Source of the DNA: Parcubacteria group bacterium M6-OD1-1
GTDB taxonomy: Bacteria > Patescibacteriota > Minisyncoccia > GWC2-36-17 > M10-OD1-4
Length of the DNA: 64,000 nt
Reading direction: 5' to 3'
Assembly: GCA_003056085.1 (NCBI GenBank)
Contig: LSNK01000002.1
Location: 110,575 to 174,574, forward strand
Shown: piece by piece, positions 3,413 to 62,459 of the stretch
Layout: every line of letters starts with the position of its first letter
Numbering within the stretch: the first letter of the stretch is position 1
The notes under the pieces: generated by a model
What the model saw: the letters and a program-made list of their open reading frames with translations, nothing else
The model's database searches: none
What the model was told of the DNA's origin: nothing
Translations under genes and position numbers: made by a program

Positions 3413-3413
3413 A

Positions 3414-9493: not shown

Positions 9494-9919
9494 TTATTTT
9501 AAACCGGTTGAACCAAATCCATCTTCTCCTCTTTTGGTGTCAGTCAAATCTTCTGCAATTTCAATTTTAGGAGATTCAAATTTTTGAATTATCATTTGTG
9601 CTATTTTACTTTCTTTTTTAATTTCTAAAATTTCTTTTGATAAATTTGTCATAATAACTTTCAGTTCTCCTCTATATCCTGAATCTATTACTCCTCCCAT
9701 GGTTTTTACCCCTTTTTTCAAAGCAAGTCCGCTTTTGTCCCAAAACAGCGCAACATAACCGTTGGGCAGTTCCATTTTTATCCCTGTTGATACGGCTTTT
9801 ATTTCTCCTGGGGCGATACTTGCATCTTCGTTTGAATACAAGTCCATACCTGCATCACCCTCGTGCGCAAATGAAGGAATTTTTGCATCTTTTGAAATTT
9901 TCTGAAATTTTATATTCAT
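9494..9919 (-). CDS. dut: dUTP diphosphatase
   Basis: dUTPase motifs GDAGMDLY, GVIDSGYRGEL, and FGSTG at the C-terminus. Confidence 0.85.
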   Translation of the reverse strand: MNIKFQKISKDAKIPSFAHEGDAGMDLYSNEDASIAPGEIKAVSTGIKMELPNGYVALFWDKSGLALKKGVKTMGGVIDSGYRGELKVIMTNLSKEILEIKKESKIAQMIIQKFESPKIEIAEDLTDTKRGEDGFGSTGLK

Positions 9920-9936
9920 ATTATAAAAATTTTAAA

Positions 9937-10350
9937 TTAATTACCAAAAATCACTTTAACCCATTTTTTGAAATTTTCTTTTCCTGAAATTTTATTTTTA
10001 TTTTCTTCTATCTTTACCTGTCCAACGCTTTCTTTCTCATTTAATGCGTAAGGCTTATCCACCAAAACAACCACCTCTTCCCCTTCTTTTTTAAAATTTA
10101 ATTTTAACCTTGCTTCTCTCTCTATATAATCCTCATTGGTAAGTATATTTTTTGTATTTTGAAGCTCCTCTTTTTTACTTTTCAGTTCATTTATTTGACT
10201 GTTTAGTATTGAAATTTCCTTCTTTATCTGATACTTTTTATAGAAGGTCTCATAAGTATAAAAACTGAGAACAAGAAATAGAAAAATTAAAAAGACCAAA
10301 AATGCTTTGGAATTTAAAAATGGCTGATGATCTCTTTCTTTAATTCTCAT
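9937..10350 (-). CDS. septum formation initiator family protein (FtsB/DivIC-like)
   Basis: Single N-terminal transmembrane helix, coiled coil, and conserved EDYIEREARLKLN segment. Confidence 0.55.
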   Translation of the reverse strand: MRIKERDHQPFLNSKAFLVFLIFLFLVLSFYTYETFYKKYQIKKEISILNSQINELKSKKEELQNTKNILTNEDYIEREARLKLNFKKEGEEVVVLVDKPYALNEKESVGQVKIEENKNKISGKENFKKWVKVIFGN

Positions 10351-10576: not shown

Positions 10577-10718
10577 TAATACATAACAGAATAAATGAAA
10601 TGCATAATATTGAGTAAAGACCGAGGCAAAAGCTGTGAGAGAGATTGAGTCGTAGTAACGCTACGACGAAATGAACGAACAGTTTTTAACGAAGGCATTT
10701 GCCAATATTATGCATTTT
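10577..10718 (+). ncRNA. candidate structured ncRNA, copy B of the two-copy element; strand uncertain
   Basis: Same three-stem architecture as 3270-3412 with compensatory substitutions: outer-stem pair 6 is U-G in A and G-C in B; the inner hairpin closes with G-U in A and G-C in B. The outer stem is followed by a U-run on both strands. Confidence 0.45.
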
Positions 10719-10719
10719 A

Positions 10720-18555: not shown

Positions 18556-18780
18556 AAAAATATCTTTAGATATAAAATTTATACATTTATAATGTGTTTT
18601 ACACCACTAATGTGGTTGACACTGTGGATAACTATATGTTATATTTACCAATAGAAGCATGCAATAATAGCTTACGAGATGCTGTGATGTTCCCTCAAAG
18701 CATTTGAGACTTAAGTTGCAGGCAACCATCTTGCAAGACGCTGCTTCTATTAAAAAAAGTGAGTTTTTTGCTCGCTTTTT

Positions 18781-19455
18781 TTATTTGTTATATTTCTTAT
18801 CCCAGTGATCTTTGAATAATTCTTTTCCATCTTTTAAAAGATTGTTCTTTAAGATATTAAAACACTCTCCTCCTAATTCTTTCCCCTCCAAATGCCATGC
18901 TAATGCTCCGACAATCCAATCTGCGATTTGTATATTTGCATCAAAAGTTGAATTAATCATTTCAATTTGAATAATAGTTCCTGCAGGAAGCTGCGGTGCA
19001 AGTCGATTTTTTAAAATACTTTTAAATTCTGATGGCTTAATTCCTTTCAAGTGCCTTTTGTCACAAAATACCCTAAATTCCAAATCATTCGTTGGAAGAT
19101 ACATTTCTAATGTCTCTCCAATAATATTAGTATAAAGACGACCACTTTCTAATTTATTTTTATTCTTATAAGTATCTGGAATATTTTTTCTTAATAAATA
19201 AGAGTAGTGTATACGAACATCCAAGTCAGAAATATATTTTAATGTTTTTAATCTTAGTTTTGAATTTATCTTAACTTCAGAAAATTTTATTTCTGGTTGA
19301 TTTCGCATCTTTCTTGGAAAACGTGTTTTATGCCATGAACGAAATCGTTTATTCGTTCTATTTTTATCACCAACAATAAAAGAACCAACAACAAAATATT
19401 CTTCGTTATTATGCTTTGTAAATTGTCCACTTTCATCTAAAAAAATACAAGCCAT
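18781..19455 (-). CDS. DUF3800 family protein
   Basis: N-terminal MACIFLDESG and C-terminal IQIADWIVGA match the DUF3800 signature (predicted RNase H-like fold). Confidence 0.5.
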   Translation of the reverse strand: MACIFLDESGQFTKHNNEEYFVVGSFIVGDKNRTNKRFRSWHKTRFPRKMRNQPEIKFSEVKINSKLRLKTLKYISDLDVRIHYSYLLRKNIPDTYKNKNKLESGRLYTNIIGETLEMYLPTNDLEFRVFCDKRHLKGIKPSEFKSILKNRLAPQLPAGTIIQIEMINSTFDANIQIADWIVGALAWHLEGKELGGECFNILKNNLLKDGKELFKDHWDKKYNK

Positions 19456-21853: not shown

Positions 21854-22981
21854 TTATATTTCTTTTAAAATTTTTATTGTTTCCTCTCCTGTTTTCTCCC
21901 AGTTAAATTTCTCTGCCTGTTTTAAACCTCTCTGTTTTAAAATATCGGAAAGACCCTCATCTTCCAATATCATATCCAACGCCTCTGCAATTTCCGATGG
22001 TTTGTATGGATCTATCATAATACCGGCATCTCCAACTACTTCGGGGAGCGATGAACAGTTTGAAACAACAACCGGCACACCGCAAGCCATCGCTTCAAGC
22101 GGCGGAAACCCAAACCCCTCAAAAAAACTTGGATAAACAAAAATCTTCGCTAAATTATATAAATAAATCTTATCTTCTTGATTTATAAATCCTACAAACA
22201 AAATATCCTCTGAAAATTTGGAGTTTTCCGCCCTTTTTATTATATCATCAAAAAGCCAACCAAATGTTCCGGAAATAACCAAGCTTATTTTCTTTTTTTC
22301 TCTCACAGCTTCAAATGCTTCAATAATGCCTATTATATTTTTTCTCGGCTCAATAGTGCCAAGATACAAGATAAAATTATTTGGTAAGTTATATTTCTCC
22401 TTAACTCTGTTTAAATTTGGGTTATCTTTTGAAACAGGCTTAAAACTTTCATCCACTCCGGAATAAATCACTGAAATTTTTTCTTCTTTTATATTATAAA
22501 AATTCACAATGTCATTTTTTGTTGACTCTGACATTGCTATTATTTTATCTGAATATTTTGCCTGCTTTTTAGGATTTTGGAGGAAATGCCAATATCTTTT
22601 TTTAAGTGAAAAAAATTCAGGATAATGCAAAAAAGAAATATCATGAAAAACGGTAATTTTCCTGCAATTTTTACTTAAAGGAGCTGCTAAAAAATGCGGG
22701 CTGAAGAAAACATCAACCCCGCCCAATAATTTATCAAACTTAGGAGAGTTCAAAAGCAAAAACATATCCAGAAATTTATTTGGAACATTAAAATCTTTCA
22801 ATAAAACATTTTTATTATTTAAAACCTCATTTTCAAAATTAACTTTTAAAAATGCATTGTAAAAAAGAAAAAAATCGTCTTCCTTGTGTTTTGTAAGTTC
22901 TCGCAAAATATTAAGAGTGTACTCCTCCACTCCCGTGTGCCTGCCTCGCGCTATTGTTCTTAAATCAAATCCTATTTTCAT
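21854..22981 (-). CDS. glycosyltransferase family 4
   Basis: EGFGFPPLEAMACGVPVVVSNCSSLPEVVGDAG. Confidence 0.75.
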   Translation of the reverse strand: MKIGFDLRTIARGRHTGVEEYTLNILRELTKHKEDDFFLFYNAFLKVNFENEVLNNKNVLLKDFNVPNKFLDMFLLLNSPKFDKLLGGVDVFFSPHFLAAPLSKNCRKITVFHDISFLHYPEFFSLKKRYWHFLQNPKKQAKYSDKIIAMSESTKNDIVNFYNIKEEKISVIYSGVDESFKPVSKDNPNLNRVKEKYNLPNNFILYLGTIEPRKNIIGIIEAFEAVREKKKISLVISGTFGWLFDDIIKRAENSKFSEDILFVGFINQEDKIYLYNLAKIFVYPSFFEGFGFPPLEAMACGVPVVVSNCSSLPEVVGDAGIMIDPYKPSEIAEALDMILEDEGLSDILKQRGLKQAEKFNWEKTGEETIKILKEI

Positions 22982-23180
22982 GCCAATATTATTAAAATTT
23001 ACGAGCTCAATGCGAAGTAAATTTTACTATAACATTGAGCACCTCTCATTTGGACTGATAAAAAACAATTTATAACTTTAAAATAAATAATATGTCTTTT
23101 TTACAAATCCAAGTGATGGATGAAGTTTTACTGCTGAATTTTATTCACCTAATGGCTTCAAGATTCAGATAAAGCCCTTA
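22982..23180 (-). repeat. intergenic structured element, R family copy 1 (core CATCACTTGG ... CCAAATGAGAGG); its 5' part is read through by the upstream GT4 gene
   Basis: Shares hairpins, the CCTCACTTGG/CCAAGTGAGG core and the GGTGCTCAATGTT box with five other copies (see findings). Confidence 0.6.
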
Positions 23181-24249
23181 TCTTTTCTTTAAATATTTTT
23201 TTATCAAAAGTTTTGGCATGATTTCTTATAAAATCAACATCAAAACTTAAATCTTTAAATCTGCTAACAGCATCTATGATGCTTTCTTCTGTTTGCTCTT
23301 TAAAAAAGATGCCTGTTTTTCCGGAAATAACAGTTTCCCGAGCCCCGCCGGCTTCAAAAGCTATAACAGGACGGCCTAATGCCATCGCCTCAAGCGGAAC
23401 AATGCCAAAATCCTCCTCTTGAGGAAAAATAAGGGCTTTTGCGTTTTGGTAATACTCTCTTAGTTTTTCGTCTTCAAGTGCTCCTAAAAATTCTATATTA
23501 TCACTCGCTATTTTTTCTAATTTTTTTCTTTCCGGACCGTTACCCACTATTTTTAAAGGCAGTCCTATTTTAGAAAAAGCCGTTATGGCAAGATCAAATT
23601 TTTTATAAGACAGAAGCCTTCCCACCATCAAAAAATAACTTCCTTTATTTTTTTTAGCGGAATTTTTTGAAAAATTGAATTTTAAAGTATCTACAGGCGG
23701 GTGAATCACCAATGCATCTTGTTTATAATATTTTTTTATCCTTTTTGCGACAAAGTTGGAATTTGCCAAATAAAAATCCGGCCTCTGAGAAGCTTGAAAA
23801 TCCCATGTTCTTATATATGTCATAAAATAAGGAATAAATTTTTTAACAAAGTCCGGAAATGGAAAATCTCTTATATATTTATGGGAGTCATCCCATGCGT
23901 ACCTTGTGGGAGTGTGGCAATAGCAAATATGCTTTGTTTTGGGAAGTGTTATAACTCCTTTGGCATAGGAGGCTGTATCTGAAATAACAAGATCATAGTC
24001 TGAAAGATCAAACTGCTCTATGGCAAGCGGCATTAAAACCAGAAAGCTTCGGTGTCTTTTTTTTGCAAAAGGAACTTTTTGCAAAAAAGAGGAATAAATC
24101 TTTCTTCCCGGAAATTTTTTTTCAATTAATTTTTCATCATAAATTAATGTATAAATGGGGGCATCCGGATAAATCTCACACAACGCCTCCAAAACACGCT
24201 CTGCTCCTCCGTATTGAGTTAGATAATCGTGAATTAAGGCTACTTTCAT
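23158..24249 (-). CDS. glycosyltransferase family 4
   Basis: MKVALIHDYLTQYGGAERV at the N-terminus and GT-B C-terminal EDFGIVPLEAMALGRPVIA. Confidence 0.75.
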   Translation of the reverse strand: MKVALIHDYLTQYGGAERVLEALCEIYPDAPIYTLIYDEKLIEKKFPGRKIYSSFLQKVPFAKKRHRSFLVLMPLAIEQFDLSDYDLVISDTASYAKGVITLPKTKHICYCHTPTRYAWDDSHKYIRDFPFPDFVKKFIPYFMTYIRTWDFQASQRPDFYLANSNFVAKRIKKYYKQDALVIHPPVDTLKFNFSKNSAKKNKGSYFLMVGRLLSYKKFDLAITAFSKIGLPLKIVGNGPERKKLEKIASDNIEFLGALEDEKLREYYQNAKALIFPQEEDFGIVPLEAMALGRPVIAFEAGGARETVISGKTGIFFKEQTEESIIDAVSRFKDLSFDVDFIRNHAKTFDKKIFKEKIRALSES

Positions 24250-24454
24250 ACTAATGTTGTTTTAATTATAAACAAGACTTAATGTTGGAAACAGTAACTA
24301 AATTACAACATTTAGCACCCCTCACTTGGACTAACAATTAAAAATTAAAACTTAATATTAACGCCAAAATCTTGCTTTAAAAACCAAGTGAGGGATTAAG
24401 GTTTTGCTCCCAAAATTTCAAGGCTTAGCCTTGAAATTTTGGGCAAAGCCCTTA
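24250..24454 (-). repeat. intergenic structured element, R family copy 2
   Basis: Minus strand TAA-GGGCTTTG, a 16 bp hairpin, AAAACCTTAATC, CCTCACTTGG, a 60 nt spacer, CCAAGTGAGG, GGTGCTAAATGTT. Confidence 0.6.
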
Positions 24455-41669: not shown

Positions 41670-42212
41670 TTATGCTGCTGTTGCAGCTTTTTTACCTGCT
41701 TTTCTTCTTACTACTTCACCCTGATATCTTATACCCTTTCCTTTGTAAGGTTCTGGTTTCTTTAACTTTCTTATATTTGCAGCTGTTTGACCGACTAACA
41801 TCTTACTGATACCGGAAACCGTTATTGTATTTTTCTCGACTGCAAAACTAATTCCTTCCGGAGCTTCAATTTCAACAGGATGAGAAAATCCTAACGCCAT
41901 CACAAGCTTATTTCCCTGCAAGTCAACCTTAAAACCAACACCTTCAATTTCCAATTTCTTTTCATATCCTTTACTCACGCCATCTAACATATTTGCAATA
42001 AGAGATCTTGTAAGCCCCCAAAAAGCCGGGCCTCTTTTATCTTCTCCTAAAATAGAAACTAGAATTTGACTATCACTCATTTTAACATCCACAAAAGAAG
42101 CTTTTTTCATTGAAAGCTCGCCTTTTGGTCCTTTAGCAGTGATATTGTCTCCATTTATAGTTACTGTAATATCACTTCCTATTTCTATTGGTTGTTTTCC
42201 TACTCTGCTCAT
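41670..42212 (-). CDS. rplF: 50S ribosomal protein L6
   Basis: MSRVGKQPIEIGSDITVTI. Confidence 0.9.
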   Translation of the reverse strand: MSRVGKQPIEIGSDITVTINGDNITAKGPKGELSMKKASFVDVKMSDSQILVSILGEDKRGPAFWGLTRSLIANMLDGVSKGYEKKLEIEGVGFKVDLQGNKLVMALGFSHPVEIEAPEGISFAVEKNTITVSGISKMLVGQTAANIRKLKKPEPYKGKGIRYQGEVVRRKAGKKAATAA

Positions 42213-42427
42213 ACCAGTGTTGTTTTAATTATTTAATGAGACTCAATGTTGAGTGAAATAATTAAATTTCAACATTGAGCATCCCTCACTTGGATTAATA
42301 AAAGATAAATTATAAGTTTAAGTAAATAATATATCTTTTTTAAAAAACCCAAGTTAGGAGTAAGGTTTTCTATCCAAGTTTTTACTTCTGATTAACATCA
42401 GAACCAAAAACTTGGATAAAACTCTTA
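42213..42427 (-). repeat. intergenic structured element, R family copy 3, lying between rpsH and rplF
   Basis: Minus strand TAA-GAGTTTTA; hairpin TCCAAGTTTTTGGTTCTGAT-GTTA-ATCAGAAGTAAAAACTTGGA; AAAACCTTACTC; CTAACTTGG; 55 nt spacer; CCAAGTGAGG; GATGCTCAATGTTGA hairpin. Confidence 0.6.
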
Positions 42428-42817
42428 CCAAACTTCGCATAAAACTTCTCCTCCAATTTTATTTTTTCTTGCTTCTTTATTGCTTATAACACCCATTGGA
42501 GTTGAAAGTATTGAAATGCCAAATCCTTGCCTAATATCAAAAAGCTCTGAATGCCCCTTGTAAATCCTCTGGCTTGGTCTTGAAACTCTCTTAAGCTCTG
42601 AAATATAAGATTCTCCTTCTGTATTGTATTTTAATTTAATCTCAATTATTTTTTTAATCTTTTTTCCTTTTTTGTCACAAGAATCAATAAATCCCTCTTT
42701 TTTAAGAACGCTTGCAATTGACATTTTCATTTTTGAATAAGGAATATGCACAGTTGGTTTTCCAACTGCTTTTGAATTTCTTATTCTTGTTAACATATCT
42801 GCTATTGGGTCTGTCAT
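42425..42817 (-). CDS. rpsH: 30S ribosomal protein S8
   Basis: MTDPIADMLTRIRNS. Confidence 0.9.
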   Translation of the reverse strand: MTDPIADMLTRIRNSKAVGKPTVHIPYSKMKMSIASVLKKEGFIDSCDKKGKKIKKIIEIKLKYNTEGESYISELKRVSRPSQRIYKGHSELFDIRQGFGISILSTPMGVISNKEARKNKIGGEVLCEVW

Positions 42818-42890
42818 TTTTTTAGGTTTTAGGTTATAGGTTTTAGGAATTAGATTTTACCAACACCTACAAACTATCGCCTTAATTAAT

Positions 42891-43076
42891 TTACCAACTT
42901 GATTTTTTAATTCCTGGAATTTCACCTTTATTTGCCATTTCTCTGAAGCAAATCCTACAAAGATCAAAATCTCTCATATATCCATGTTTTCTTCCACATT
43001 TAAAACACCTTAATACTTTACGAGTAGAAAACTTCGGTGTCTTTTTTGATCTTGCTATTGTTGATTGCTTTGCCAT
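42891..43076 (-). CDS. rpsZ: 30S ribosomal protein S14 type Z (61 aa, zinc-binding)
   Basis: [23 protein letters not shown]. Confidence 0.9.
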
Positions 43077-43142
43077 AATAATTAGTTATAAACTTGTTAA
43101 GTCCAAAGGTTAAAAATCGCTTGCTTTATAACTTTTAACTTT

Positions 43143-43694
43143 CTACTTTTTACTTTCAACCTTTAACGGAAATCCTAATAATCTAAATAATTTTTCTGCT
43201 TGTTTTTTGTCTTTACTGGATGTAACAACTGTAATCTGGAGTCCAAAAATACCTCTTGCATTTTCCTGATTAATTTCAGGAAATACGATTTGTTCACGAA
43301 TCCCTATGGTTAAATTCCCATTTTCATCAATATTTTTAAGCTCTAATCCTCTGAAATCTCTTGTTCTTGGAAGTGACACAGATACCAATCTATCAATAAA
43401 ATCATACATTTTTTCACCCCTTAGAGTAACTCTTACTCCAACATCCATACCTTCTCTTAATTTAAAAGCGGCGATTGATTTTTTTGCCTTTGCTTTCACG
43501 GCTTTCTGACCAGCAATAGCTGTGATGTCTTTTTCTATCGCATCCACCAAAGCTGTATCCTTTGCTACCCTTCCTGTCCCGCTGTTTAAAATAACTTTTT
43601 TAATCTTCGGCACCTGAAAATCATTTTTAAAACCAAACTCCTTTTTAAGCTGTTCTGTTATTTCTTTTTTGTATTTTTCCTTTAATCTGTTCAT
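43143..43694 (-). CDS. rplE: 50S ribosomal protein L5
   Basis: [12 protein letters not shown]...[22 protein letters not shown]. Confidence 0.9.
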
Positions 43695-43836
43695 AATAAC
43701 GAATCAAGAATCAAGAATTAAAAATCAAGTATTTTTACCGTTTAACTTAATTTATAATTTTTGCTTCTTATTTACTTCTCAAACTATTCTCGTAAAAAAT
43801 TATTCTCAGTCAATCTTATTTTTTCTTATTTCTCAA
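43695..43836 (-). repeat. intergenic repeat, S family copy 1 (between rplX and rplE)
   Basis: About 80 percent identical over ~95 nt to 44578-44716; contains AATCAAG tandem units. Confidence 0.55.
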
Positions 43837-44151
43837 CTATATTATAGTTTCACACCTCTTGCATAATCTGTTTTTTCCTTCTTTGTTCAACTTATAACCT
43901 ACTCTTGTTGGTTTGTTGCATTTTTTACATACCAGCATAACATTTGAAATATGTGTCGGCGCCTCAACATCTATTATTTGGCCCTTTTCACCTTGTTTCT
44001 TGGGTCTCACATGTCTTTTTCGCATATTTACACCCTCAACAACAACCTTATCAATCTTTGGTATAGCTTGAATTATCTTTCCGTCTTTTCCTTTATCTTT
44101 TCCTGATAAAATTATTACATTGTCTCCTTTTTTTATTTTCATAAAAATCAA
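43837..44151 (-). CDS. rplX: 50S ribosomal protein L24 (true start probably MKIKKGD)
   Basis: KOW motif KIKKGDNVIILSGKDKGKDGKI. Confidence 0.9.
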   Translation of the reverse strand: MIFMKIKKGDNVIILSGKDKGKDGKIIQAIPKIDKVVVEGVNMRKRHVRPKKQGEKGQIIDVEAPTHISNVMLVCKKCNKPTRVGYKLNKEGKNRLCKRCETII

Positions 44152-44211
44152 TTATAAAGTTAAAAAGCTCAAAAATGAATTACATAAAACTTTTAACTTT
44201 TTCTATTTTAA

Positions 44212-44577
44212 CTAAATTACTTCCGGTGCAAGCGATGTCAATTTCAGATAACCTCTTTCTTTCAACTCTCTTGGAATCGGACCAAAAACACGCCCTCCTT
44301 TTATATCTTTTCCATCCAGCACAACAGCTGCGTTTTCGTCAAACCTGATATAAGAACCGTCTTTTCTTCTGAAAGTCTTTTTTTGCCTCACAATAACAGC
44401 CTTAACAACATCTGATTTTTTTACAGCTTTCCTCGGTTCAGCAGACTTTACAGCAGCAACTATAATATCCCCAATCTGGGCATATCTTCTTTTTGACCCA
44501 CCTAAAACCTTTATGCATTGGATCTTTTTTGCGCCGCTGTTATCGGCTATTTTTAACATTGTTTGTACTTGAATCAT
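44212..44577 (-). CDS. rplN: 50S ribosomal protein L14
   Basis: [28 protein letters not shown]. Confidence 0.9.
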
Positions 44578-44716
44578 AATAATGAATTAAGAATCAAGAA
44601 TTAAAAATCAAGTATTTTATCGTTTAACTTAATTTATAATTTTTGATCCTTACTTCTTGTTTATTTTTTAAACTATTTCCTGCTTCGTAAATACTTTTAT
44701 ATAAATCTACACCTAA
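44578..44716 (-). repeat. intergenic repeat, S family copy 2 (between rpsQ and rplN)
   Basis: Homologous to 43695-43836. Confidence 0.55.
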
Positions 44717-44965
44717 CTAATTTGCTTTTATAACCACCCATTTCTTGTCTTTTGAAATAGGCTTTGACTCTAAAATTCTAACCGCATCACCCACCTTATG
44801 TAAATTTTTTTCATCGTGCGCCTTATATCTTTTTGAAACCTTGATGTATTTTTTATATATCTTATGTTTTTTGTATTCAGATACTAAAACAACAACAGTT
44901 TTATCCATTTTATCTGAAACCACCATTCCCTCAAGTATTCTTTTGTTCACTGTTTTTGTTTTCAT
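44717..44965 (-). CDS. rpsQ: 30S ribosomal protein S17
   Basis: [28 protein letters not shown]. Confidence 0.9.
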
Positions 44966-45060
44966 AAATCTCTTAATTCATATTAACTACTTGCATCAAA
45001 AGATAAAATTATATTTAATATCTCTTTTGTGCTTATGGTTAATAAAAGTCTTTATAGCAT

Positions 45061-45243
45061 TTATTTTTGATTAAGTAAAGTTTTCACCCTTGCAATACCT
45101 CTTTTAACCATCTTTACTTCACTTATATTTTTTAATCTATTAAAAGTCAGATCAAATCTAAGATCATGAAGTTTTTTAATATCATTTTTCAAAACTTTTT
45201 CCAATTCGGATTTTGTTTTTGATTTTAATTCCACTTTTTTCAT
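45061..45243 (-). CDS. rpmC: 50S ribosomal protein L29
   Basis: 60 aa, L29 helix pattern [25 protein letters not shown]. Confidence 0.85.
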
Positions 45244-45247
45244 ATTA

Positions 45248-45664
45248 TTACTTTAATCTTTTAACAAATTTGGTTTTAACAGGAAGCTTAAAAGATGCTT
45301 TTCTAAAAGCGTCTTTTGCTTTCTCTTCGGACACTCCATCCATTTCAAAAAGAATTCTCCCGGGCTTTATCGGCATAACATATTTATCAACAGAACCTTT
45401 TCCTCCACCCATAGGGGTTTCAGCTCCTTTTTTGGTTATCGGTTTGTCAGGGAAAACCCTAATCCAAATTTTACCTCCTTTTTGAACTGTTCTTGTTATA
45501 ACACGTCTTGCAGCTTCAATCTGTCTTGAGTCTATCCATGCTCTGCCTTCTGATTTCATACCAAAACTACCAAAACTAATAGTAGCTCCTCTTGATTCAA
45601 CGCCAGTGCTTTTCTTGCGTCCCTTCTGCCATTTTCTATGTTTTACTTTATTTGGTATTAACAT
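45248..45664 (-). CDS. rplP: 50S ribosomal protein L16
   Basis: [33 protein letters not shown]. Confidence 0.9.
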
Positions 45665-45738
45665 AAGTTCATTATAATAAGTTATAAAGTGTAAAAGCTT
45701 AATATAACTTACTTTTAACTTGATAACTTCTTACTTTT

Positions 45739-46419
45739 TTATTTTTTATTCTCTTTTTTTTGCTCTTTAAATACTTCTCCTTTATAAATCCAAACCTTAA
45801 TTCCGGAAACTCCATACCTGCAATATGCGTTAACCTGCGCATAATCAATGTCCGCTCTTATGGTCTGTAAAGGAATATTTCCTTTTGACAACCATTCTGT
45901 TCTTGCCATTTCAGCTCCATCAAGCCTGCCAGAAATCATAATCTTAACCCCTTTTACCTCGGAGTTTTGCATAACTTTTTCTATAGACTGTTTAAGAACT
46001 CTTCTGAAAGGCATTCTTTTTTCCATCTGATCTGCAATCTGCTGACCTAATATCTGAGCATTAGACTCCGGTTTTGAAACTTCTTCTATCTGTAATTTAA
46101 TATTTGTTTTTGAAGATTTGTCTTCTCTTATTCTTTTATAAAAATTATCAATCTCTTTTTTCAATGTTTCAATACCGGCACCACCCTTACCAATAATAAG
46201 CCCTGGTCTTGAAGTGTGTATTATAATCTTAAGTTCGTTTTCTGATCTCTCCATTTCTATCTTGCTTAAGCCTTGTTTTTTTAATTTGTCCGTCACTAAC
46301 TTACGAAGATAATAATCTTCTTTCAAAAATCCTTTATATTTTTTTAGACTAAACCACATTGACCTCCAGGTCGTTGTCTCTCCTATTCTAAAAACTAATG
46401 GATGAACTTTTTTACCCAT
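45739..46419 (-). CDS. rpsC: 30S ribosomal protein S3
   Basis: MGKKVHPLVFRIGETTTWRSMWF; KH domain. Confidence 0.9.
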   Translation of the reverse strand: MGKKVHPLVFRIGETTTWRSMWFSLKKYKGFLKEDYYLRKLVTDKLKKQGLSKIEMERSENELKIIIHTSRPGLIIGKGGAGIETLKKEIDNFYKRIREDKSSKTNIKLQIEEVSKPESNAQILGQQIADQMEKRMPFRRVLKQSIEKVMQNSEVKGVKIMISGRLDGAEMARTEWLSKGNIPLQTIRADIDYAQVNAYCRYGVSGIKVWIYKGEVFKEQKKENKK

Positions 46420-46421
46420 AA

Positions 46422-46904
46422 CTATTTATCTTTTTTATTAATCTGCTTCTTATCTTCTTTTTTAACCGACTTTTTCACCTTCTTGTCTGTTACTTCTTCA
46501 GTCTTTTCTTTACTATTGTCAATTTCTTTATCTAATTTATTTTTTTCCTTCTTTTCTTTCGGTTCGGTTTTTTCTTTATCTTCCAATACCAAAGTTATAT
46601 GAGAAGTTCTTTTTCTTATATGAAAAGCCCTCCCCATAGCTCTTGGCATAATTCTTTTTAAAGTCGGACCTTCATTTACAAATAACTCTGAAATATATAA
46701 ATCTGACTCTTTCAACTTAAAATTATGTTCTGCATTTGCGATTGCAGAATTTAAAAGCTTAAGCATACTCTTTGAAGATCTTTTAATCAAAAAATGAAGT
46801 TGGTGTTTTGCGTCCGCAACATCAAGACCCCTCACCAAATCTGCTACTAATCTGACTTTTCTTGGTGAAATTCTTAAGTTGTTCAACTTCGCTTTTACCT
46901 TCAT
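46422..46904 (-). CDS. rplV: 50S ribosomal protein L22 with Lys/Glu-rich C-terminal tail
   Basis: RISPRKVRLVADLVRGLDVADAKHQLHF. Confidence 0.9.
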   Translation of the reverse strand: MKVKAKLNNLRISPRKVRLVADLVRGLDVADAKHQLHFLIKRSSKSMLKLLNSAIANAEHNFKLKESDLYISELFVNEGPTLKRIMPRAMGRAFHIRKRTSHITLVLEDKEKTEPKEKKEKNKLDKEIDNSKEKTEEVTDKKVKKSVKKEDKKQINKKDK

Positions 46905-47077
46905 GAAAATATTATTTTAATTATTTAACGAAACTCAATTTGGATTAATAAAAGACAAGTTATAAGTTTAAGTAAATAATATGTCTTTTTTTACAAACCC
47001 AATTGAGAGGTAAGTTTTTTTATCCAAGTTTTTACTTCCGATTAACATCGGAATCAAAAACTTGGATAAAACCCTTA
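46905..47077 (-). repeat. intergenic structured element, R family copy 4, lying between rpsS and rplV
   Basis: Same architecture as copy 3, but core arms changed to CTCAATTGG / CCAAATTGAG. Hairpin 1 carries CCGAT/ATCGG instead of CTGAT/ATCAG. Confidence 0.6.
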
Positions 47078-47353
47078 CTTTTTCTGATCTAAAACTTTTT
47101 GAATTTTTCCTCCGTGTCTCACAAACTTCTTTGTCGGAGAAAACTCTCCAAGCCTGTGTCCTACCATATCCTCTGTTACAAACACCTCCAAATGCTGTTT
47201 TCCATTATGGACACCAAATGTATGACCAACCATTTCCGGAGATATCATAGAAGCCCTGGCCCAAGTTTTGATAACCTCGCCTCGCTTTGCGTTTAATACC
47301 TTTTTTGCCAATTTTTCATCTACGTATGGTCCTTTTTTTAAACTTCTTGACAT
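47075..47353 (-). CDS. rpsS: 30S ribosomal protein S19
   Basis: [15 protein letters not shown]...[12 protein letters not shown]. Confidence 0.9.
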
Positions 47354-47375
47354 TTTTTTACTTTTTACTTTTTAA

Positions 47376-48212
47376 TTATCTTTTCTTGCTTACTCTCCTT
47401 CTTATTATCAATTTATTTGAAGGATTGTGCTTTTTTCTGGTCTTTTTGCCTAAAGCATGCTTTCCCCAAGGTGTTTTTGGATATTTCATTCCAATTCCTT
47501 GTCTTCCCTCTCCTCCACCATGAGGATGATCAACCGGGTTCATGGCAGAACCACGAACTGTTGGTCTTTTCCCAACCCATCTTGATCTTCCTGCTTTTCC
47601 ATGATTTACCAAAGCATATTCAGTATTTGAAACTATTCCAATCGTAGCCAAACAGCTGTCCAATACTTTTCTTATTTCCTTTGACGGCATAAGCAACTGT
47701 GTGTAACCTTTCTCATTTGCCATAACCTGAGCTGATGAACCTGCTGACCTTGTAATTTGACCTCCTTTATTTGGTTGTAATTCAATATTATGAACAAAAT
47801 ATCCTACTGGAATATTTTTAAGCGGCATTCTGTTTCCCTCTTTTAACGGAGCTTTTTCTGAAGTAATAACCTCATCGCCAACTTTTATTGATTTTTCTGC
47901 AATAACATACCTTTTATCTCCATCTGCATATGTTAAAAGTGCAATAAAAGCGGATCTATTAGGATCATATTCCAAAGTTGTAACTTTAGCCGGAACATCA
48001 AATTTATCCTGTTTAAAGTCTATTTCTCTGTATAATCTTTTATTTCCACCACCTTTATGTCTTACTGTTATTCTTCCTGATGTCGCTCTGCCCTTTCTTC
48101 TTTTAAATCCTGATGTCAAAGATTTTTCCGGATTTTTAACAGTCAAAACAGAGTAGTCAACTACTGTTCTCCCTCTTTGTCCTGGTGTTGTTGGTTTTAA
48201 TCTTTTTAACAT
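47376..48212 (-). CDS. rplB: 50S ribosomal protein L2
   Basis: GRNMPLKNIPVG...HGGGEGR. Confidence 0.9.
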   Translation of the reverse strand: MLKRLKPTTPGQRGRTVVDYSVLTVKNPEKSLTSGFKRRKGRATSGRITVRHKGGGNKRLYREIDFKQDKFDVPAKVTTLEYDPNRSAFIALLTYADGDKRYVIAEKSIKVGDEVITSEKAPLKEGNRMPLKNIPVGYFVHNIELQPNKGGQITRSAGSSAQVMANEKGYTQLLMPSKEIRKVLDSCLATIGIVSNTEYALVNHGKAGRSRWVGKRPTVRGSAMNPVDHPHGGGEGRQGIGMKYPKTPWGKHALGKKTRKKHNPSNKLIIRRRVSKKR

Positions 48213-48493
48213 AATAATAAATTTTTATTTTTCTAAAAACTAATCTGTTTGAGTGTAATTTAAGAAAAAAGCGAGGAGTGAAACGAAAATGTACTTATTG
48301 GGTACATTGAGTAAACTCAATATGAAATGAATTTTACTATAATATTGAGTACTCCTCACTTAGACCTACAAAAAATAAATTACGAAATCTACATACATAA
48401 TATATTCTTTACAAACCCAAGTGAGGAATAAGGTTTGCTAACCAAATTTTTACCTCCGATAAATCGGAAATAAAAATTTGGAGCAAGCCCTTA
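48213..48493 (-). repeat. intergenic structured element, R family copy 5 (longest, 278 nt), lying between rplW and rplB
   Basis: Minus strand TAA-GGGCTTGCT; hairpin CCAAATTTTTA...TAAAAATTTGG; AAACCTTATTC; CTCACTTGG; spacer; CTAAGTGAGG; AGTACTCAATATT hairpin. An extra GTGAGGAGT/ACTCCTCGC pair lies in the 3' tail. Confidence 0.6.
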
Positions 48494-48904
48494 TACTCCT
48501 ATATCTATTTTATCTCCATCCTTTAATGTAACTATCGCTTTTTTAAAACCTGGCTTTCTTCCTTGATGCGCTCCAAGTCTGACTTTCTTGCTTGCCGTAT
48601 TAATGATAGCCACATTTATCACCGTAACATCATAAATACTTTCCACTGTATTTCTAACATCAATCTTATTTACTGCATCCAAAACTTTAAAAACATATTT
48701 ATTTTCCTGACCCATCATAGCGGTTTTTTCTGTTATATACGGCGCTTTAAGGATATTATAATACACAAAATCAGCTGCCTTTGCAATAGCTTTTTTTTCA
48801 GTTTTAGGCTGGTCAACTTTGGACTGATCTTTTTTCTGCACTTCCAAATCCTTTGTGCTATCGTCCTTTTTTACTGTTTTTTTTAATTTATCTAAAATTG
48901 TCAT
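48491..48904 (-). CDS. rplW: 50S ribosomal protein L23 with N-terminal extension
   Basis: YYNILKAPYITEKTAMMGQENKYVFKV. Confidence 0.85.
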   Translation of the reverse strand: MTILDKLKKTVKKDDSTKDLEVQKKDQSKVDQPKTEKKAIAKAADFVYYNILKAPYITEKTAMMGQENKYVFKVLDAVNKIDVRNTVESIYDVTVINVAIINTASKKVRLGAHQGRKPGFKKAIVTLKDGDKIDIGV

Positions 48905-52226: not shown

Positions 52227-52598
52227 CTAAAACGGCAAATCTTCTAACTTAACTTCTTTTAAATCTTTCTTTATTTTTTCCACCTCATGATAACCTTCAA
52301 ATTGATTTTTAAGCTCAATCTCCCTTGATTTTACTATCTTTTCTCTGTTTATCTTAAGCTCATCTTCTATGACGCTGTGAATTGCATCTATATCATTATC
52401 ATGAAATTCAGTCTCTTTTTTAAAAAAATCTTCATTAAATCCATCCGAATCATCCAATAGATAATCACTCTCTATGGTTTTTTTCATATTTCTCGTATAG
52501 TCCTCAAAAGGAACCACAACATAGGATGGCTTTCCATCTTCCATAACAACTATACCTTTTTTAGATACATCCAATACCTTTTTTATATCATCAAGCAT
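52227..52598 (-). CDS. hypothetical acidic protein located between fusA and tuf
   Basis: 123 aa, Asp/Glu-rich; no motif. Good ORF context with an R-family element upstream. Confidence 0.35.
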   Translation of the reverse strand: MLDDIKKVLDVSKKGIVVMEDGKPSYVVVPFEDYTRNMKKTIESDYLLDDSDGFNEDFFKKETEFHDNDIDAIHSVIEDELKINREKIVKSREIELKNQFEGYHEVEKIKKDLKEVKLEDLPF

Positions 52599-52795
52599 GT
52601 TAATGTTATTAAAATTTACGAGCTCAATGCGAAGTAAATTTTACCATAACATTGAGTACCCCTCACTTGGATCATTAAAAAATAAATTACAACCTCTTGA
52701 AGCAAGTACTGTGTTTTTTATAACCCAAGTGAGAGGTAAGGTTTTGTTGCTGAATTTTAAAACCTTTAAGCTTCAAAATTCAGACAAAGCCCTTA
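52599..52795 (-). repeat. intergenic structured element, R family copy 6 (fusA stop codon to the 52598 gene)
   Basis: 3' ~75 nt nearly identical to copy 1. Core CCTCTCACTTGG / CCAAGTGAGGGG. Confidence 0.6.
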
Positions 52796-54895: not shown

Positions 54896-55081
54896 AAATT
54901 TTAAATTAAAAAGTAAAAATACAAAAATTAAAAACTTTTAAAGTTTATTATAGATATAAAACTTTCAAAATTGAGTACGCTTCGAGGAGCGGCTGAGGAA
55001 CAAAGCAAACCGTACTTAAAAGTACGGCGAAACGAGTACCGGAATCCGCGACAAAAAAGCGTGCCAATTTTCAAAATTTTA

Positions 55082-55549: not shown

Positions 55550-55620
55550 TTCCTTATTATTTCCCTATTATTTAAATTTCCTTATTATTTCCTTATTAAT
55601 TTAATTTCCCTATTATTTCC
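55550..55620 (-). repeat. tandem purine-rich repeats (about six AAUAAGGAAAU / AAUAGGGAAAU units on the coding strand) in the rpsL-rpsG spacer
   Basis: Forward ttattatttccctattatttaaatttccttattatttccttattaatttaatttccctattatttccctatt. Each unit carries an SD-like AGGA or GGGA. Confidence 0.6.
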
Positions 55621-59581: not shown

Positions 59582-60301
59582 CTAAAAATAAAACTGGTTT
59601 TTACCAAAAAGAACTGAGCTTGATGTTTTTGACCCGTGATGATTGATTTTTAAAACATCAACGTCAATATCAAGACCTGAATTTGATAAGTTTAACTCCT
59701 CTTTTAACTCAGCATCACCGGAAAACAAAAATTTCCTATCAAAAAATTTTAAAATCAATGCTAAAGAAGTATTATTTGGATTTTCCACTTTCACCCCTGA
59801 CATGTCAGAAAAAGGATATAAAACATCCATTGAAACAAATTCACCTAAATTTATTTGAACTCCCGCCTTTGCTTCTATTTTATTTATATTTTTTTCCTTT
59901 ACTAACCCGGACAACTCTTTGTAAAGGCTGTTTTTGTATTCAATGCTGGAAAATAATATATTGTCCACTTTATATCTTTTTAAAACATCAATGAGTCCGA
60001 AAATATGATCTTTTTGGGGATGCGTTATCACTAAAAGGTTTATTTCTCTATCATAAAAAGGCATAACTTTAGAAAGCTCAGATAAAACGGAATTGTCCGG
60101 ACCTCCGTCTATCAAAACCTGAATTTTTTCAGGTGTTTCAATGAAAATCGCATCCCCTTGCCCTACATTTAAAAAATAAATTTTTAAATTTCCATCTGCG
60201 CCATACTTAAAAATAAAACTCCAAATAAATATCACAATAATCAACACTCCACCCCAAAAATATAATTTATTTTTTGTATTTTTATTAAAATTAAAAATCA
60301 T
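59582..60301 (-). CDS. comEC: ComEC/Rec2 C-terminal metallo-beta-lactamase domain fragment, separated from the comEC body by a transposase insertion
   Basis: One transmembrane helix, then MBL-fold motifs VITHPQKDH...GDAE...HHGSK. Its start codon directly abuts palindrome P1. Confidence 0.6.
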   Translation of the reverse strand: MIFNFNKNTKNKLYFWGGVLIIVIFIWSFIFKYGADGNLKIYFLNVGQGDAIFIETPEKIQVLIDGGPDNSVLSELSKVMPFYDREINLLVITHPQKDHIFGLIDVLKRYKVDNILFSSIEYKNSLYKELSGLVKEKNINKIEAKAGVQINLGEFVSMDVLYPFSDMSGVKVENPNNTSLALILKFFDRKFLFSGDAELKEELNLSNSGLDIDVDVLKINHHGSKTSSSVLFGKNQFYF

Positions 60302-60307
60302 CCCCTC

Positions 60308-60332
60308 AACTTAGGGGTGCAACCCCTAAGTG
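60308..60332. repeat. REP-like palindrome P1 (CTTAGGGGTGCACCCCTAAG)
   Basis: Perfect 20 nt palindrome between the comEC MBL fragment and the transposase stop. Confidence 0.7.
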
Positions 60333-60346
60333 ATTTAACGCTAAAA

Positions 60347-61024
60347 TTATTCCAACAGAAAACTTTCTACCTCTTTTAATCTTTTTCTTCTTTCTAAAAT
60401 AGACTCCAGAGACTTTTTTGCAAATTTTCTATAATCTTCTTTATTTTTAAACTGATTTAAAATAATATCTTTCTTACAAAAATTATTTTCTGTATTTTCT
60501 GTATACTCCATCCAGCTTGACCTGCTTTTAACCAACTTAGGGGTTGCACCCCTAAGTTGATGAACTTCATTATTTAAATTAACATAAACACTCGTGTTTA
60601 AAAGTTGTTCGTTTGAATCTATATGCACGGACTTAAATCTTCCTTGAAAAAGCACTCCTGAACGATTATATTTTTTGTTAAAATATGAAGTATACCCGCC
60701 CAATCTTCTCATAAACTCACTAATACCACCATCAACAACTTGCTCTAATATAAAATGATAATGATTTGGATTAAGACAAAAAGCTAAAATATTTACTAAT
60801 TTAGAATCATTAACCAACTTAGGGGTTGAACCCCTAAGTTGGTTAATTTTAAATGATTGTGCGTAAATACTGCCTATAGGATTTATATTATTAAATTCAT
60901 TCATGCTCTGATAAAATCTATCAACATCATATTGGTCTAAAAAAACATTACGCTGATCTACGCCACGATTACAAATATGATAAAACTCATTATTTGTAAT
61001 AAATTGTATTTTTCTATTACCCAT
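60347..61024 (-). mobile_element. RAYT/IS200-like HUH Y1 transposase (transposase_17 family), 225 aa, with two in-frame palindrome insertions
   Basis: HUH motif NPNHYHFIL. Tyr-rich GGYTSYFNKKY, then GVLFQGRFKSVHIDSNEQL (the RAYT-type GxWQxRF motif). Peptides QLRGSTPKLV and QLRGATPKLV are encoded by palindrome copies at 60533-60560 and 60813-60841. Confidence 0.65.
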
Positions 61025-61040
61025 ATACTTAATATTGTAC

Positions 61041-61079
61041 CATAAACTTACTTAGGGGTTGAACCCCTAAGTAAGTTTA
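61041..61079. repeat. REP-like palindrome P4 (perfect 39 nt: ATAAACTTACTTAGGGGTT-G-AACCCCTAAGTAAGTTTAT)
   Basis: Lies exactly between the transposase start and the stop codon of the comEC N-terminal fragment. Confidence 0.75.
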
Positions 61080-62459
61080 TTAAAAAGAAATTGAGGAAAA
61101 AGACAGGCTTCCAAGAACCTCTATCACCTTCAGTTGGTAAGCTAAAATAAACCATAAAGGAAATACAAATATCTTAGCTAAAAAAAGAGAAACAAAACTC
61201 AATACTCCTGTTAAAAACGCCAAAAGCATAGCAATGGGTATTACGGGCAATATTAAAATATTAGCCAATGGAGAAATAACAGAAATCTGATTAAAATTAT
61301 ATATTAATATGGGCAAAACAGCGGCTTGCGCAGAGAGAGTCGCAGATAGTGTATCCCGCAATTTAAAAAAATTCGGAATCTTTTTAAATTTTTTTAAAAA
61401 ATAAGGATAAAAATACAATAGTCCTAAAGTTGCCAAAAAAGAAAGCTGAAAAGAAACATCAAATACTAAAATTTTTGGATTAAAAAGTATCATTAAAAAT
61501 GCAGCAAAAACAAGTGCGTTCAAAGAGTGTTGCGCTCTACCATAGTATCTTGCTAAAAGCAAAACCGAACCCATTAAGGCAGCCCTCACAACGGAAGCGG
61601 ATGCTCCCGTCATAACAACAAATAAAGTTATCGTAAAAATAGCAGTCAATACTATAACTTTTCTATTTGAAATAAAAAAACTGAATATCCACGCCAAGAA
61701 CATCACAATAATGGTTACATTAAAACCAGACAGCGCAATAATATGTGCTGTCCCTGTTTTTATAAAATCATCATATAATTTGGGCGGGATTTCCGACTTT
61801 GAACCAAAAATCACACCATTTATAAAATCAGCTTCCGGAGAAGGAAGTAAAATTTTAATATTATTTTCAAATTCTTTTTTAAATTTAAAAAGATTAGAAG
61901 CAATGACATTTCCTTTTTCTTTCTCTTTAACTTCAATTTTAGGATTTTGCATCAAAAAATATATATTATCTTTTGAAAGATATGCTCTATAATCAAAATC
62001 ATTAAAATTTTCCGGTTCTTTTAATTCTCCTCTCACCAAAATTAAATCTCCATACTCATACTCCGGATATCTTTCTGTTTTTATTAAAACCCTCTCTTTT
62101 TCTTTTGTTTGTAAAATAATTTTTTGTTTGACACCTTTAAACTCCGGCTCTCTTAAAATAATCCCTGAAATTTCTATATTTTCCCCAACAAACTTTTCCA
62201 ACGATAAATATTTTGGAGATGATTTTTGATACCAGAAAATCCCTGCAAAAAATATTAAAAAGAAAATAAAAAGAAGAAAAATGTGCTTTTTTTGAAAAAA
62301 AGAAAATAAAAAGACAGCAATGATAGAAAAAACAAATAATACCAAAAACAAGTCAAAACCAAAAAATGTTGCATAAAAAACGCCACCCAAAAAAGACAGC
62401 ATTGTAAATAAAAATATTTTTGATTTTGTAAAAATACTAAATTGACTCTTCATACTCAT
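61080..62459 (-). CDS. comEC: ComEC/Rec2 N-terminal (DUF4131-like) plus competence membrane domain, truncated before the MBL domain
   Basis: Multi-pass membrane region with GTAHIIALSGFNVTIIVMFLAWI (competence domain). Its stop codon abuts palindrome P4. Confidence 0.6.
   Translation of the reverse strand: MSMKSQFSIFTKSKIFLFTMLSFLGGVFYATFFGFDLFLVLFVFSIIAVFLFSFFQKKHIFLLFIFFLIFFAGIFWYQKSSPKYLSLEKFVGENIEISGIILREPEFKGVKQKIILQTKEKERVLIKTERYPEYEYGDLILVRGELKEPENFNDFDYRAYLSKDNIYFLMQNPKIEVKEKEKGNVIASNLFKFKKEFENNIKILLPSPEADFINGVIFGSKSEIPPKLYDDFIKTGTAHIIALSGFNVTIIVMFLAWIFSFFISNRKVIVLTAIFTITLFVVMTGASASVVRAALMGSVLLLARYYGRAQHSLNALVFAAFLMILFNPKILVFDVSFQLSFLATLGLLYFYPYFLKKFKKIPNFFKLRDTLSATLSAQAAVLPILIYNFNQISVISPLANILILPVIPIAMLLAFLTGVLSFVSLFLAKIFVFPLWFILAYQLKVIEVLGSLSFSSISF

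Follow-up and report, generated by a model that had tools for sequence, protein, structure and literature searches.

The 64,000-nucleotide (nt) window analysed here, from the 207-kb contig LSNK01000002.1 of Parcubacteria group bacterium M6-OD1-1, carries copies of one repeat family, which we call R, in three spacers of its ribosomal-protein operon. Comparison of these copies with one another and with related genomes shows R to be a structured and apparently mobile family, present only in sense orientation, which spans the interval from the stop codon of one gene to the start codon of the next and has a predicted, covarying alternative helix at that start codon. We give an even chance to the fuller reading, in which this family of mosaic palindromic elements spread into intercistronic junctions of a Candidatus Azambacteria-like lineage, is co-transcribed and carries a gated initiation region. 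Genes of the window were placed by open reading frame (ORF) coordinates and Pfam matches, which put the str/S10/spc cluster on the minus strand. A preliminary description of this DNA had proposed that R-family repeats create spacers of 278 nt between rplW and rplB, 170 nt between rpsS and rplV, and 212 nt between rpsH and rplF. These lengths were exact (48213-48490, 46905-47074, and 42213-42424, respectively), and a direct-repeat search with alignment found one copy filling each spacer. The compactness claimed for the neighbouring genes holds for rplD-rplW (1 nt), rplV-rpsC (2 nt), and rplP-rpmC (4 nt), but 11 other spacers of the operon measure 60-142 nt, many of them being A-rich/U-rich hairpins or other repeat families.

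A covariance model of the element (R1), built from six copies and scored at every position on both strands of the window, returned exactly six matches, all on the minus strand and in sense, with scores of 125-185 bits (E = 8e-22 to 3e-33). Three of the six (copies A, B, and C) lie inside the ribosomal-protein operon. Independent metagenome and Logan assemblies carry copies A, D, and E in the same context with 0-7 mismatches (0 over 2487 nt in assembly L083 and 7 over 4335 nt in L085), and the R copies are therefore no assembly artefact. The same organism is also represented in WGS sets VAPK and VAPL and in run SRR14803397. The upstream gene uses the TAA at the head of the element as its in-frame stop in five window copies (A, B, C, E, and F) and in six of the 10 copies overall. 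In copy D it is out of frame, and the upstream gene adds six sense codons within the element before it stops at a TGA (23158-23160). At the other end, similarity between copies reaches the downstream ATG in five of the six window copies, the exception being copy C, where 103 nt of copy-specific sequence (48213-48315) takes the place of the usual tail. Copy B has suffered a deletion of ~42 nt that took the GAGG arm (the 3′ arm of helix P2) and the 5′ arm of P3/P4; what was left of the sequence forms a rebuilt P2, whose 5′ arm carries a C-to-A change. Every one of the 10 copies, from the window and from relatives, is sense-oriented between co-directional genes. In the window at large, about 90% of genes are on the minus strand and 75% stop with TAA.

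Searches against known families gave no assignment. With Rfam 15 at the gathering threshold, the whole window matched only the DUF3800-V RNA and two tRNAs and none of the R copies, while at E<=10 the region 42150-48550 gave only sub-threshold chance hairpin matches to microRNA models. A scan for tRNA and transfer-messenger RNA found nothing within the R elements, which hold no conserved ORF. Blastn of R against phage and plasmid collections returned no match, a pattern scan of viral contigs yielded five loci of which none fitted the R model, and L092, the left extension of the window in the same genome, has no R copy. Full-text searches of the literature turned up no account of an element like R in Patescibacteria.

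Each copy opens with TAAGG(G)CTTT on the sense strand and is made of AT-rich palindromic units of 40-70 nt that add up to an element of about 170-280 nt. P1 is a long near-perfect hairpin at the stop codon, with TAAGG/CCTTA at its base and 22-27 base pairs (bp) in intact copies. P2 is a long-range stem between a C-rich and a G-rich arm (CCTCACTTGG with CCAAGTGAGG) that encloses a variable AT-rich hairpin and is very variable in size, from 7 bp in the relative L091 to ~26 bp in copy C. The conserved junction GGUGCUCAAU leads from P2 into the 3′ domain, where P3 forms a local hairpin (GCTCAATG with CATTGAGC) and the AU-rich tail behind it stays single-stranded. The P3 loop is complementary to this tail in copies D, F, and L091 (UAAAAUUUAC with GUAAAUUUUA), in copy A (UUUAAUUAUUU with AAAUAAUUAAA), and in L084 (UAAAAUUUAUUAGC with GCUAAUAAAUUUUA). 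A second complementarity links the P3 5′ arm, CAAUGUUAU, to AUAAYAUUG, which stops 2 nt before the ATG. The two pairings together give a long alternative hairpin, P4 (P4a plus P4b), which is incompatible with P3 and in which the leader is buried to within 2 nt of the ATG; P3 and P4a cannot coexist because both use the CAAUG strand. In copy B, where the deletion removed the 5′ arm of P3/P4, the tail therefore cannot be sequestered. An H-type pseudoknot of P3 with P4b was rejected by loop-length reasoning, its 2-nt connector being too short for an 8-bp stem.

The window copies fold far more stably than shuffled sequence (z from -3.4 to -10.1). Covariation of P1, P2, and P3 was assessed in nine copies from four organisms, where 91.9% of cells were paired and 29 of 59 pairs had changed on both sides, a result attained by 0 of 500 shuffles and compared with 3-8 in slid controls. 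P3 taken alone had 94% of cells paired and two of nine pairs changed on both sides. For P4 we used R2, a 75-nt covariance model of the 3′ domain that recovers seven copies; in these, 94.6% of cells were paired and nine of 19 pairs had changed on both sides (0 of 500 shuffles; slid controls 0-1), namely four of nine in P4a and five of 10 in P4b, which was 100% paired. When each state was forced, the P3 and P4 folds lay 0.1-2.3 kcal/mol apart in each of the six complete copies (A, D, E, F, L084, and L091; in copy A, -73.8 and -72.8 kcal/mol, respectively), and for this reason the 3′ domain looks bistable. The sense strand was 1-11 kcal/mol more stable than the antisense strand in the six window copies (4-11 kcal/mol on full stop-to-start coordinates), with 49 against 27 G-U pairs, an asymmetry that suggests an RNA-level role of the element. 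Together, the covariation of four helices (P1, P2, P3, and P4) supports the modelled fold as a real one. Two structures named in the preliminary description are borne out by it: the hairpin directly at the upstream stop codon is P1, which covaries and begins with the stop codon in all three operon copies, and the long-range pairing of the core arms is P2, which also covaries.

By its L2 protein the lineage groups with Candidatus Azambacteria (Patescibacteria), and we compared the window with eight relatives that have the same gene order (L087-L090, L091, L093, L099, and L100); four-protein identity to the window was 84-87% in the six relatives compared. Spacers in the relatives measure 2-11 nt at rplW-rplB (L091 excepted), 4-15 nt at rpsS-rplV, and 19-40 nt at rpsH-rplF (readable in six of the eight, L091 excepted), and the upstream proteins terminate at the same residues in window and relatives. 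A search of the relatives with R1 gave no match except in L091. The sites are thus polymorphic for presence and absence, L087-L090, L093, L099, and L100 having empty sites. With spacers of 2-40 nt in the relatives at the three junctions, the copies are insertions into an otherwise compact operon, as had been claimed. Long spacers free of the repeat in all relatives, the pattern named beforehand as pointing to a trait of the lineage, were not seen. Because relatives have short spacers at the same sites, we regard the R copies as lineage-specific insertions.

The match in L091 is a true R copy at the fusA-orf junction (5647-5804, 104.3 bits), the same site as copy F, and L093, the sister of L091 (90.7% identity), is without it. 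Between copy F and L091 the 3′ domain is 91% identical, against 80% for the flanking fusA (nucleotide level) and 56% for the orf. The P2 arms of L091 read GCCCGCC/GGCGGGT in place of CCTCTCACTTGG/CCAAGTGAGGGG, which keeps the pairing and loses GAGG. Import of the fusA-orf copy with its flanks by recombination was considered and rejected, since the flanks are no closer in identity to L091 than to L093. Related copies are patchy in three other Patescibacteria (L091, L084, and L012). L084, found in a metagenome pattern scan whose other matches were mostly the same organism, has one R copy after a pilM-like gene and before the next gene, and L012 has two, at rpsJ-rplC and rpsC-rplP. An L2 search of genome contigs retrieved only distant relatives (<=62% identity), with R copies in the L012 locus only. 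Judged by these filled and empty sites, R elements are gained and lost among relatives. L091 also carries a different repeat family (9839-10000, 14856-14988, and 15382-15495), situated at rplW-rplB, rpsH-rplF, and rpsN-rpsH, each copy of which ends in ...TTTAAATTTAGCGAAGCGAAT directly before the ATG. Since another family stands at rplW-rplB and rpsH-rplF in L091, the same operon junctions appear to be recurrent landing sites.

Coordinates in the window of the genes that border the operon copies, the six R copies with their sub-parts, and a transposase-like gene.
Feature	Position	Strand	Basis or boundaries
rplW (L23)	48491-48904	-	ORF and Pfam
rplB (L2)	47376-48212	-	ORF and Pfam
rpsS (S19)	47075-47353	-	ORF and Pfam
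rplV (L22)	46422-46904	-	ORF and Pfam
rpsH (S8)	42425-42817	-	ORF and Pfam
rplF (L6)	41670-42212	-	ORF and Pfam
R copy A	42210-42427	-	rpsH stop TAA to rplF ATG; R1 175.5 bits, R2 40.3 bits
Copy A, P1	42361-42427	-
Copy A, P2 arms	42346-42360 and 42282-42296	-
Copy A, P3 arms	42269-42279 and 42242-42252	-
Copy A, P4b arms	42256-42266 and 42224-42234	-	alternative fold
Copy A, P4a 3′ arm	42215-42222	-	alternative fold; stops 2 nt before the ATG
R copy B	46902-47077	-	rpsS stop TAA to rplV ATG; R1 124.8 bits
Copy B, P1	47011-47077	-
Copy B, rebuilt P2	46994-47009 and 46934-46947	-
Copy B, tail	46905-46933	-
R copy C	48210-48493	-	rplW stop TAA (48491-48493) to rplB ATG (48210-48212); R1 159.5 bits
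Copy C, P1	48429-48493	-
Copy C, P2 arms	48403-48428 and 48352-48377	-
Copy C, P3 arms	48342-48349 and 48316-48323	-
R copy D	22979-23180	-	between two GT4 glycosyltransferase genes; R1 185 bits
R copy E	24247-24454	-	sugar transferase (Bac_transf) stop TAA to GT4 glycosyltransferase ATG; R1 165.9 bits
R copy F	52596-52795	-	fusA stop TAA to ATG of a conserved 123-amino-acid ORF; R1 183 bits
IS200-like Y1 / REP-associated tyrosine transposase-like gene	60347-61024	-	Pfam PF01797, 31.7 bits (above cut-off)

In the mechanism that we favour, the R element would be transcribed as part of the operon mRNA and would act as a self-contained intercistronic adaptor. The upstream cistron would terminate at the hairpin-flanked TAA, independent initiation on the element's own AU-rich leader would take over from stop-start coupling, and the near-isoenergetic balance of P3 and P4 would determine how frequently the leader is open. 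As sites for a double-strand-specific nuclease (RNase III) and for stabilisation, P1 and P2 are plausible. The preliminary description suggested that the elements make rplB, rplV, and rplF initiate independently. This is plausible, since classical stop-start coupling is ruled out by 170-278 nt of folded RNA; the feature most relevant to it, the covarying P4 that pairs the leader to 2 nt before the ATG, had been absent from that description. A motif resembling a Shine-Dalgarno (SD) sequence precedes 10 of 68 window genes (~15%) and, among the ribosomal-protein genes of this operon, only rpsG; in an organism mostly without SD sequences, initiation should rely on an unstructured leader. A more ambitious version, which we hold only tentatively and think unlikely, makes R a mobile cis-regulatory RNA, a portable module that would bring to each new junction a hairpin-flanked stop, a processing or stabilising duplex, and SD-independent initiation gated by bistable helices. 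Its bulged-U duplex, RC-u-CAAUNUUAU with AUAANAUUG-GC, would be bound by a lineage-specific factor that sets the gate. An unrelated 145-nt repeat and the rpsG-fusA leader have this bulged-U duplex as their closing stem, too.

Several observations weigh against a gated initiation region of this kind. The covariation alignments were fitted to their own models, so that the counts lean toward the modelled structures, and they rest on 7-9 sequences, several of them close relatives. Compensatory changes are scarce in P3 (the two of nine pairs given above) and P3 is absent in the two distant L012 copies, for which reason a switch may hold for part of the family only. The strand asymmetry fails outside the window, the two strands of L084 being equal and the antisense strand of L091 being the more stable. 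Copies B and C are without an intact P4 although they stand in front of essential genes, and gating is to that extent dispensable. Simple insertion 3′ of a TAA does not explain why the native spacers have vanished at filled sites. Co-transcription, processing, and an effect on translation are properties that we infer for the R elements, and DNA-strand hairpins serving transposition would give the same covariation as an RNA function.

R could accordingly be viewed as purely selfish DNA, its single-strand hairpins being recognition structures for an HUH/Y1 transposase (as in REP/BIME or IS200/IS605-derived palindromic elements) and its RNA folds by-products, with selection tolerating copies where they are least harmful, that is, between a stop and a start codon. 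We rate this as a real possibility, though on balance an unlikely one. The ends of the element are compatible with it. In no copy is the 5′ end, TAAGGGCTTT, complementary to the 3′ end, ...ATTGGCATG, the inverted repeats of R being internal only (P1, P2, and P3/P4), and comparison of filled with empty sites at four junctions in three relatives revealed no target-site duplication; at filled sites the native spacer of 7-22 nt is gone and R sits between TAA and ATG. TAA heads all nine aligned copies (column 1-70 is UA in nine of nine), hairpins stand near both ends (P1 at the 5′ end, P3/P4 at the 3′ end), and there is a single orientation. Because of the constant 5′ TAA, the single orientation, and the lack of terminal inverted repeats and target duplications, hairpin-dependent single-strand transposition of the HUH/Y1 type fits R best as a candidate for how it moves. 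Patchy presence among sister genomes, the many other palindromic repeat families of the same genome, and the decay of copies B and C likewise favour selfish DNA, as does the Y1 transposase-like gene in the window (29.8 bits with NCBIfam REP_Tyr_transpos, below cut-off). This gene (region 60289-61086) is flanked on both sides by the perfect palindrome ACTTAGGGGTTSAACCCCTAAGT; between its stem, CCAACTTAGGGGT, and the P2 arm of R, CCAAGTGAGGGGT, 11 of 13 positions agree. However, the palindrome belongs to a family different from R, other R parts are not alike, and the link between the transposase and R is conjectural; no insertion sequence (IS) with R-like ends was seen in the window or in the fetched loci. 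Three further points speak against purely selfish DNA. Across species the 3′ domain (~91% identical) is much better kept than the adjoining coding DNA, two mutually exclusive helices are both maintained, which a DNA hairpin signal does not need, and similarity extends right to the ATG across different gene contexts and organisms. As a separate observation, the ACTTAGGGGTTSAACCCCTAAGT palindrome also interrupts the transposase-like gene twice in frame, encoding QLRG(S/A)TPKLV, and a fifth copy lies inside a Dus gene of the same genome (L092, ~position 3250); in-frame palindromes within coding sequence recall the Rickettsia palindromic elements.

Alternatively, the elements could be intercistronic processing or stabiliser sites, with P1 and P2 cut by RNase III or a similar enzyme to leave mRNA segments with protective terminal hairpins. 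The long near-perfect P1 of intact copies and the long P2 of copy C would suit such a role, both helices covary, R elements lie between cistrons that need different expression levels, and repeats of this kind are co-transcribed and alter mRNA decay (PMC3184786). P2 is nevertheless strongly variable in length and sequence, down to the 7 bp of L091, and processing leaves the conserved P3/P4 domain that abuts the start codon unexplained. As the whole account of R we find it distinctly improbable; as a component it is compatible with gated initiation and not exclusive of it.

The preliminary description attributed to each copy an SD-like GAGG arm that pairs with the other core arm. The arm is present in two of the three operon copies, but copy B lost it in its ~42-nt deletion. 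Read as an SD masked by its partner, which upstream translation would unmask, the arm would make R a device for translational coupling or re-initiation. The arm is indeed paired in P2, in D, E, F, L084, and L091 an AUG 6 nt downstream of it starts a mini-ORF of 2-3 codons, and GAGGGG/GGGGUG shows partial complementarity to the universal 3′ end of 16S. However, copy C and both L012 copies have AUA or AUU in place of that AUG, copy B has lost it by deletion, and a mini-ORF (SD, AUG, one or two codons, stop) was rejected because its start codon is not conserved. L091 has GGCGGGU instead of the GAGG arm, with the partner arm compensated, the GAGG motif stands 60-70 nt from the true start codon, and a ribosome at the TAA reaches just the base of P1, ~60 nt short of the P2 arm. 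Together with the rarity of SD-like motifs among the 68 genes and the copy B deletion, these results led us to abandon the idea of a sequestered SD, which we consider highly improbable.

That R elements are autoregulatory leaders of ribosomal-protein genes, or small-RNA genes in their own right, each with a promoter and a terminator, is scarcely credible. Three copies precede ribosomal-protein genes and the elements are highly structured, but R copies also occur after fusA, between glycosyltransferase genes, and between pilM-like genes in another organism, locations that argue against a ribosomal-protein leader, the ribosomal-protein sites are empty in close relatives, and there is no conserved promoter or intrinsic terminator. 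A promoter scan of the R elements gave promoter-like matches only at the level of shuffled sequence, a terminator scan found no stem with a U-tract within them, and an internal promoter was rejected since the TATAAT-like P2-loop hexamer of A, B, and D is not kept in C, E, F, L084, and L091. The integron attC site was also discarded as a candidate, there being no RYYYAAC / GTTRRRY core sites at the base of P1 and the flanking genes being core housekeeping genes; none of the 50 window proteins scanned with Pfam is an integrase.

We compared R with known systems, of which the closest kinds are co-transcribed interspersed repeats (ERIC, Correia, and REP/BIME) and IS200/IS605-derived palindromic elements. 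Like R, the ERIC/IRU elements of Enterobacteriaceae are imperfect palindromes (~127 bp) in transcribed intergenic regions, also inside operons, and are patchy among relatives; ERIC is co-transcribed, refolds mRNA, and can change its decay (PMC3184786). ERIC differs in having terminal inverted repeats, TA flanks, target duplications, and both orientations, whereas R is sense-only, abuts stop and start codons, has four covarying helices including an alternative 3′ fold, and shares no sequence similarity with it. REP/BIME elements resemble R as mosaics of palindromic units that are extragenic within operons, and their mobilisation is attributed to a Y1 HUH transposase; the window, too, holds a gene like that of a REP-associated tyrosine transposase, flanked by palindromes of another family. 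REP units are 20-40 nt long and GC-rich, with a GTAG or CGTC head and alternating orientation, while R is AT-rich, 170-280 nt long, and without such a head, the order and orientation of its modules being fixed in 10 of 10 copies. REPs near a stop codon reportedly affect the upstream gene (Liang, Rudd and Deutscher, 2015). IS200/IS605-derived palindromic elements are like R in lacking terminal inverted repeats and duplications, in having hairpins near both ends and a constant short 5′ flank, and in being strand-specific; in R, however, P1 lies right at the flank and not ~20 nt inside, and the native spacer is missing. Correia elements (CREE/NEMIS) of Neisseria and the early RNase III sites of phage T7 are long co-transcribed intercistronic hairpins cut by RNase III, and P1/P2 may work like them, an analogy in which cleavage of R is putative. 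Unlike R, Correia elements carry an IHF site, a TA duplication, and terminal inverted repeats of 26 bp, and the T7 sites do not belong to any mobile repeat family. Translational RNA switches, such as riboswitch expression platforms, RNA thermometers, and bistable leaders, share with R the exclusive helices of which one occludes the initiation region, both helices covarying in R with near-equal stability. They differ from R in being dedicated to one gene family where R is repeated and mobile, and R has no known trigger, be it a ligand, a protein, or a physical cue, and no conserved pocket resembling an aptamer that we could identify. Judged by its ends and layout, R is neither a miniature inverted-repeat transposable element, with which it shares polymorphism for presence and absence among related genomes, nor a REP unit, and it has the features that describe a hairpin-ended, orientation-specific element. 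The exact stop-to-start placement, the built-in leader, and the predicted bistable 3′ domain are undescribed in those families.

Small palindromic repeats usually avoid housekeeping operons, and "repeat deserts" lie over essential genes (PMC3184786). In this streamlined genome of the Candidate Phyla Radiation (CPR), three R copies and other repeats lie in the most conserved and compact operon, which sister genomes keep tight. R is unusual among bacterial interspersed repeats in being sense-only, in spanning exactly from stop to start, and in having a leader of its own and two competing folds near the start codon. If the fold controls initiation, R would be a mobile regulatory RNA in an organism mostly without SD sequences and would give a handle on how CPR bacteria set the stoichiometry of ribosomal proteins. 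If R were moreover a portable module, streamlined, SD-poor CPR genomes could re-tune the stoichiometry of operon products by transposition. In practice, metagenome assemblies can be broken or mis-joined at such repeats, which are also useful as strain markers.

Other repeats and structured spacers were observed in the same window. A 145-nt repeat (3287-3431 and 10593-10737, minus strand, 88% identity) begins 8-9 nt past the stops of ftsX and lepA. Its closing stem consists of the P4a strings of R (12-13 nt), ATAATATTGGCA and TACTCAATATTAT, with the 5′/3′ order swapped, and exact ATAATATTGGCA/TACTCAATATTAT matches are confined to this repeat and the R copies; the recurrence of the P4a strings indicates a shared module. 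The rpsG-fusA spacer (54896-55081, 186 nt) is structured (z = -4.6) and closed by CAAAAUUGGCAC with GUACUCAAUUUUG, the bulged-U duplex motif. L091 has this structured spacer in common with the window (3295-3546), and the other relatives are without it, their spacers measuring 36-83 nt. A second repeat family of the operon occupies 43695-43836 (rplX-rplE) and 44578-44716 (rpsQ-rplN) on the minus strand, with pairing between A-rich and U-rich arms and a similarity that reaches the ATG (...TTCTTGATTCGTTATT-ATG); in relatives these two spacers are 4-45 nt, with a value of -44 for rplX-rplE in L087, an apparent overlap due to an early L5 start call. Between 40600 and 45738, most of the remaining 60-95-nt spacers of the operon (rpsE-rplO, rplF-rplR, rpsC-rplP, and rpmC-rpsQ) likewise fold into hairpins of AAAGUUAAAAGU-like A-rich arms with complementary U-rich arms (z from -2.4 to -4.6). 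Spacer expansion by palindromes is thus general in this genome's operon.

The rpsL-rpsG spacer (55550-55620) is of a different type, with about six tandem 11-nt units, AAUAAGGAAAU or AAUAGGGAAAU, and no structure (0 kcal/mol). This tract, conserved in L091 (2748-2826), may be a reiterated purine-rich tract for binding of ribosomes or of a protein before rpsG. A small ORF between fusA and tuf (52227-52598, minus strand, 100-124 amino acids) is present in the window and in six relatives, the other two not being covered. It belongs to no Pfam family; its N-terminus, MLDDIKKILEVSKRGIVVMEDGKPSYVVVPF, is weakly like Phd/YefM antitoxins (TIGR01552, 15.5 bits, below cut-off), and its C-terminal LEDLPF is invariant. 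The DUF3800-V RNA (Rfam RF02964, 75.6 bits) lies at 18653-18748 on the plus strand, just past the 3′ end of a DUF3800 gene (18781-19455, minus strand), a location that fits the association with DUF3800 genes for which the motif is named.

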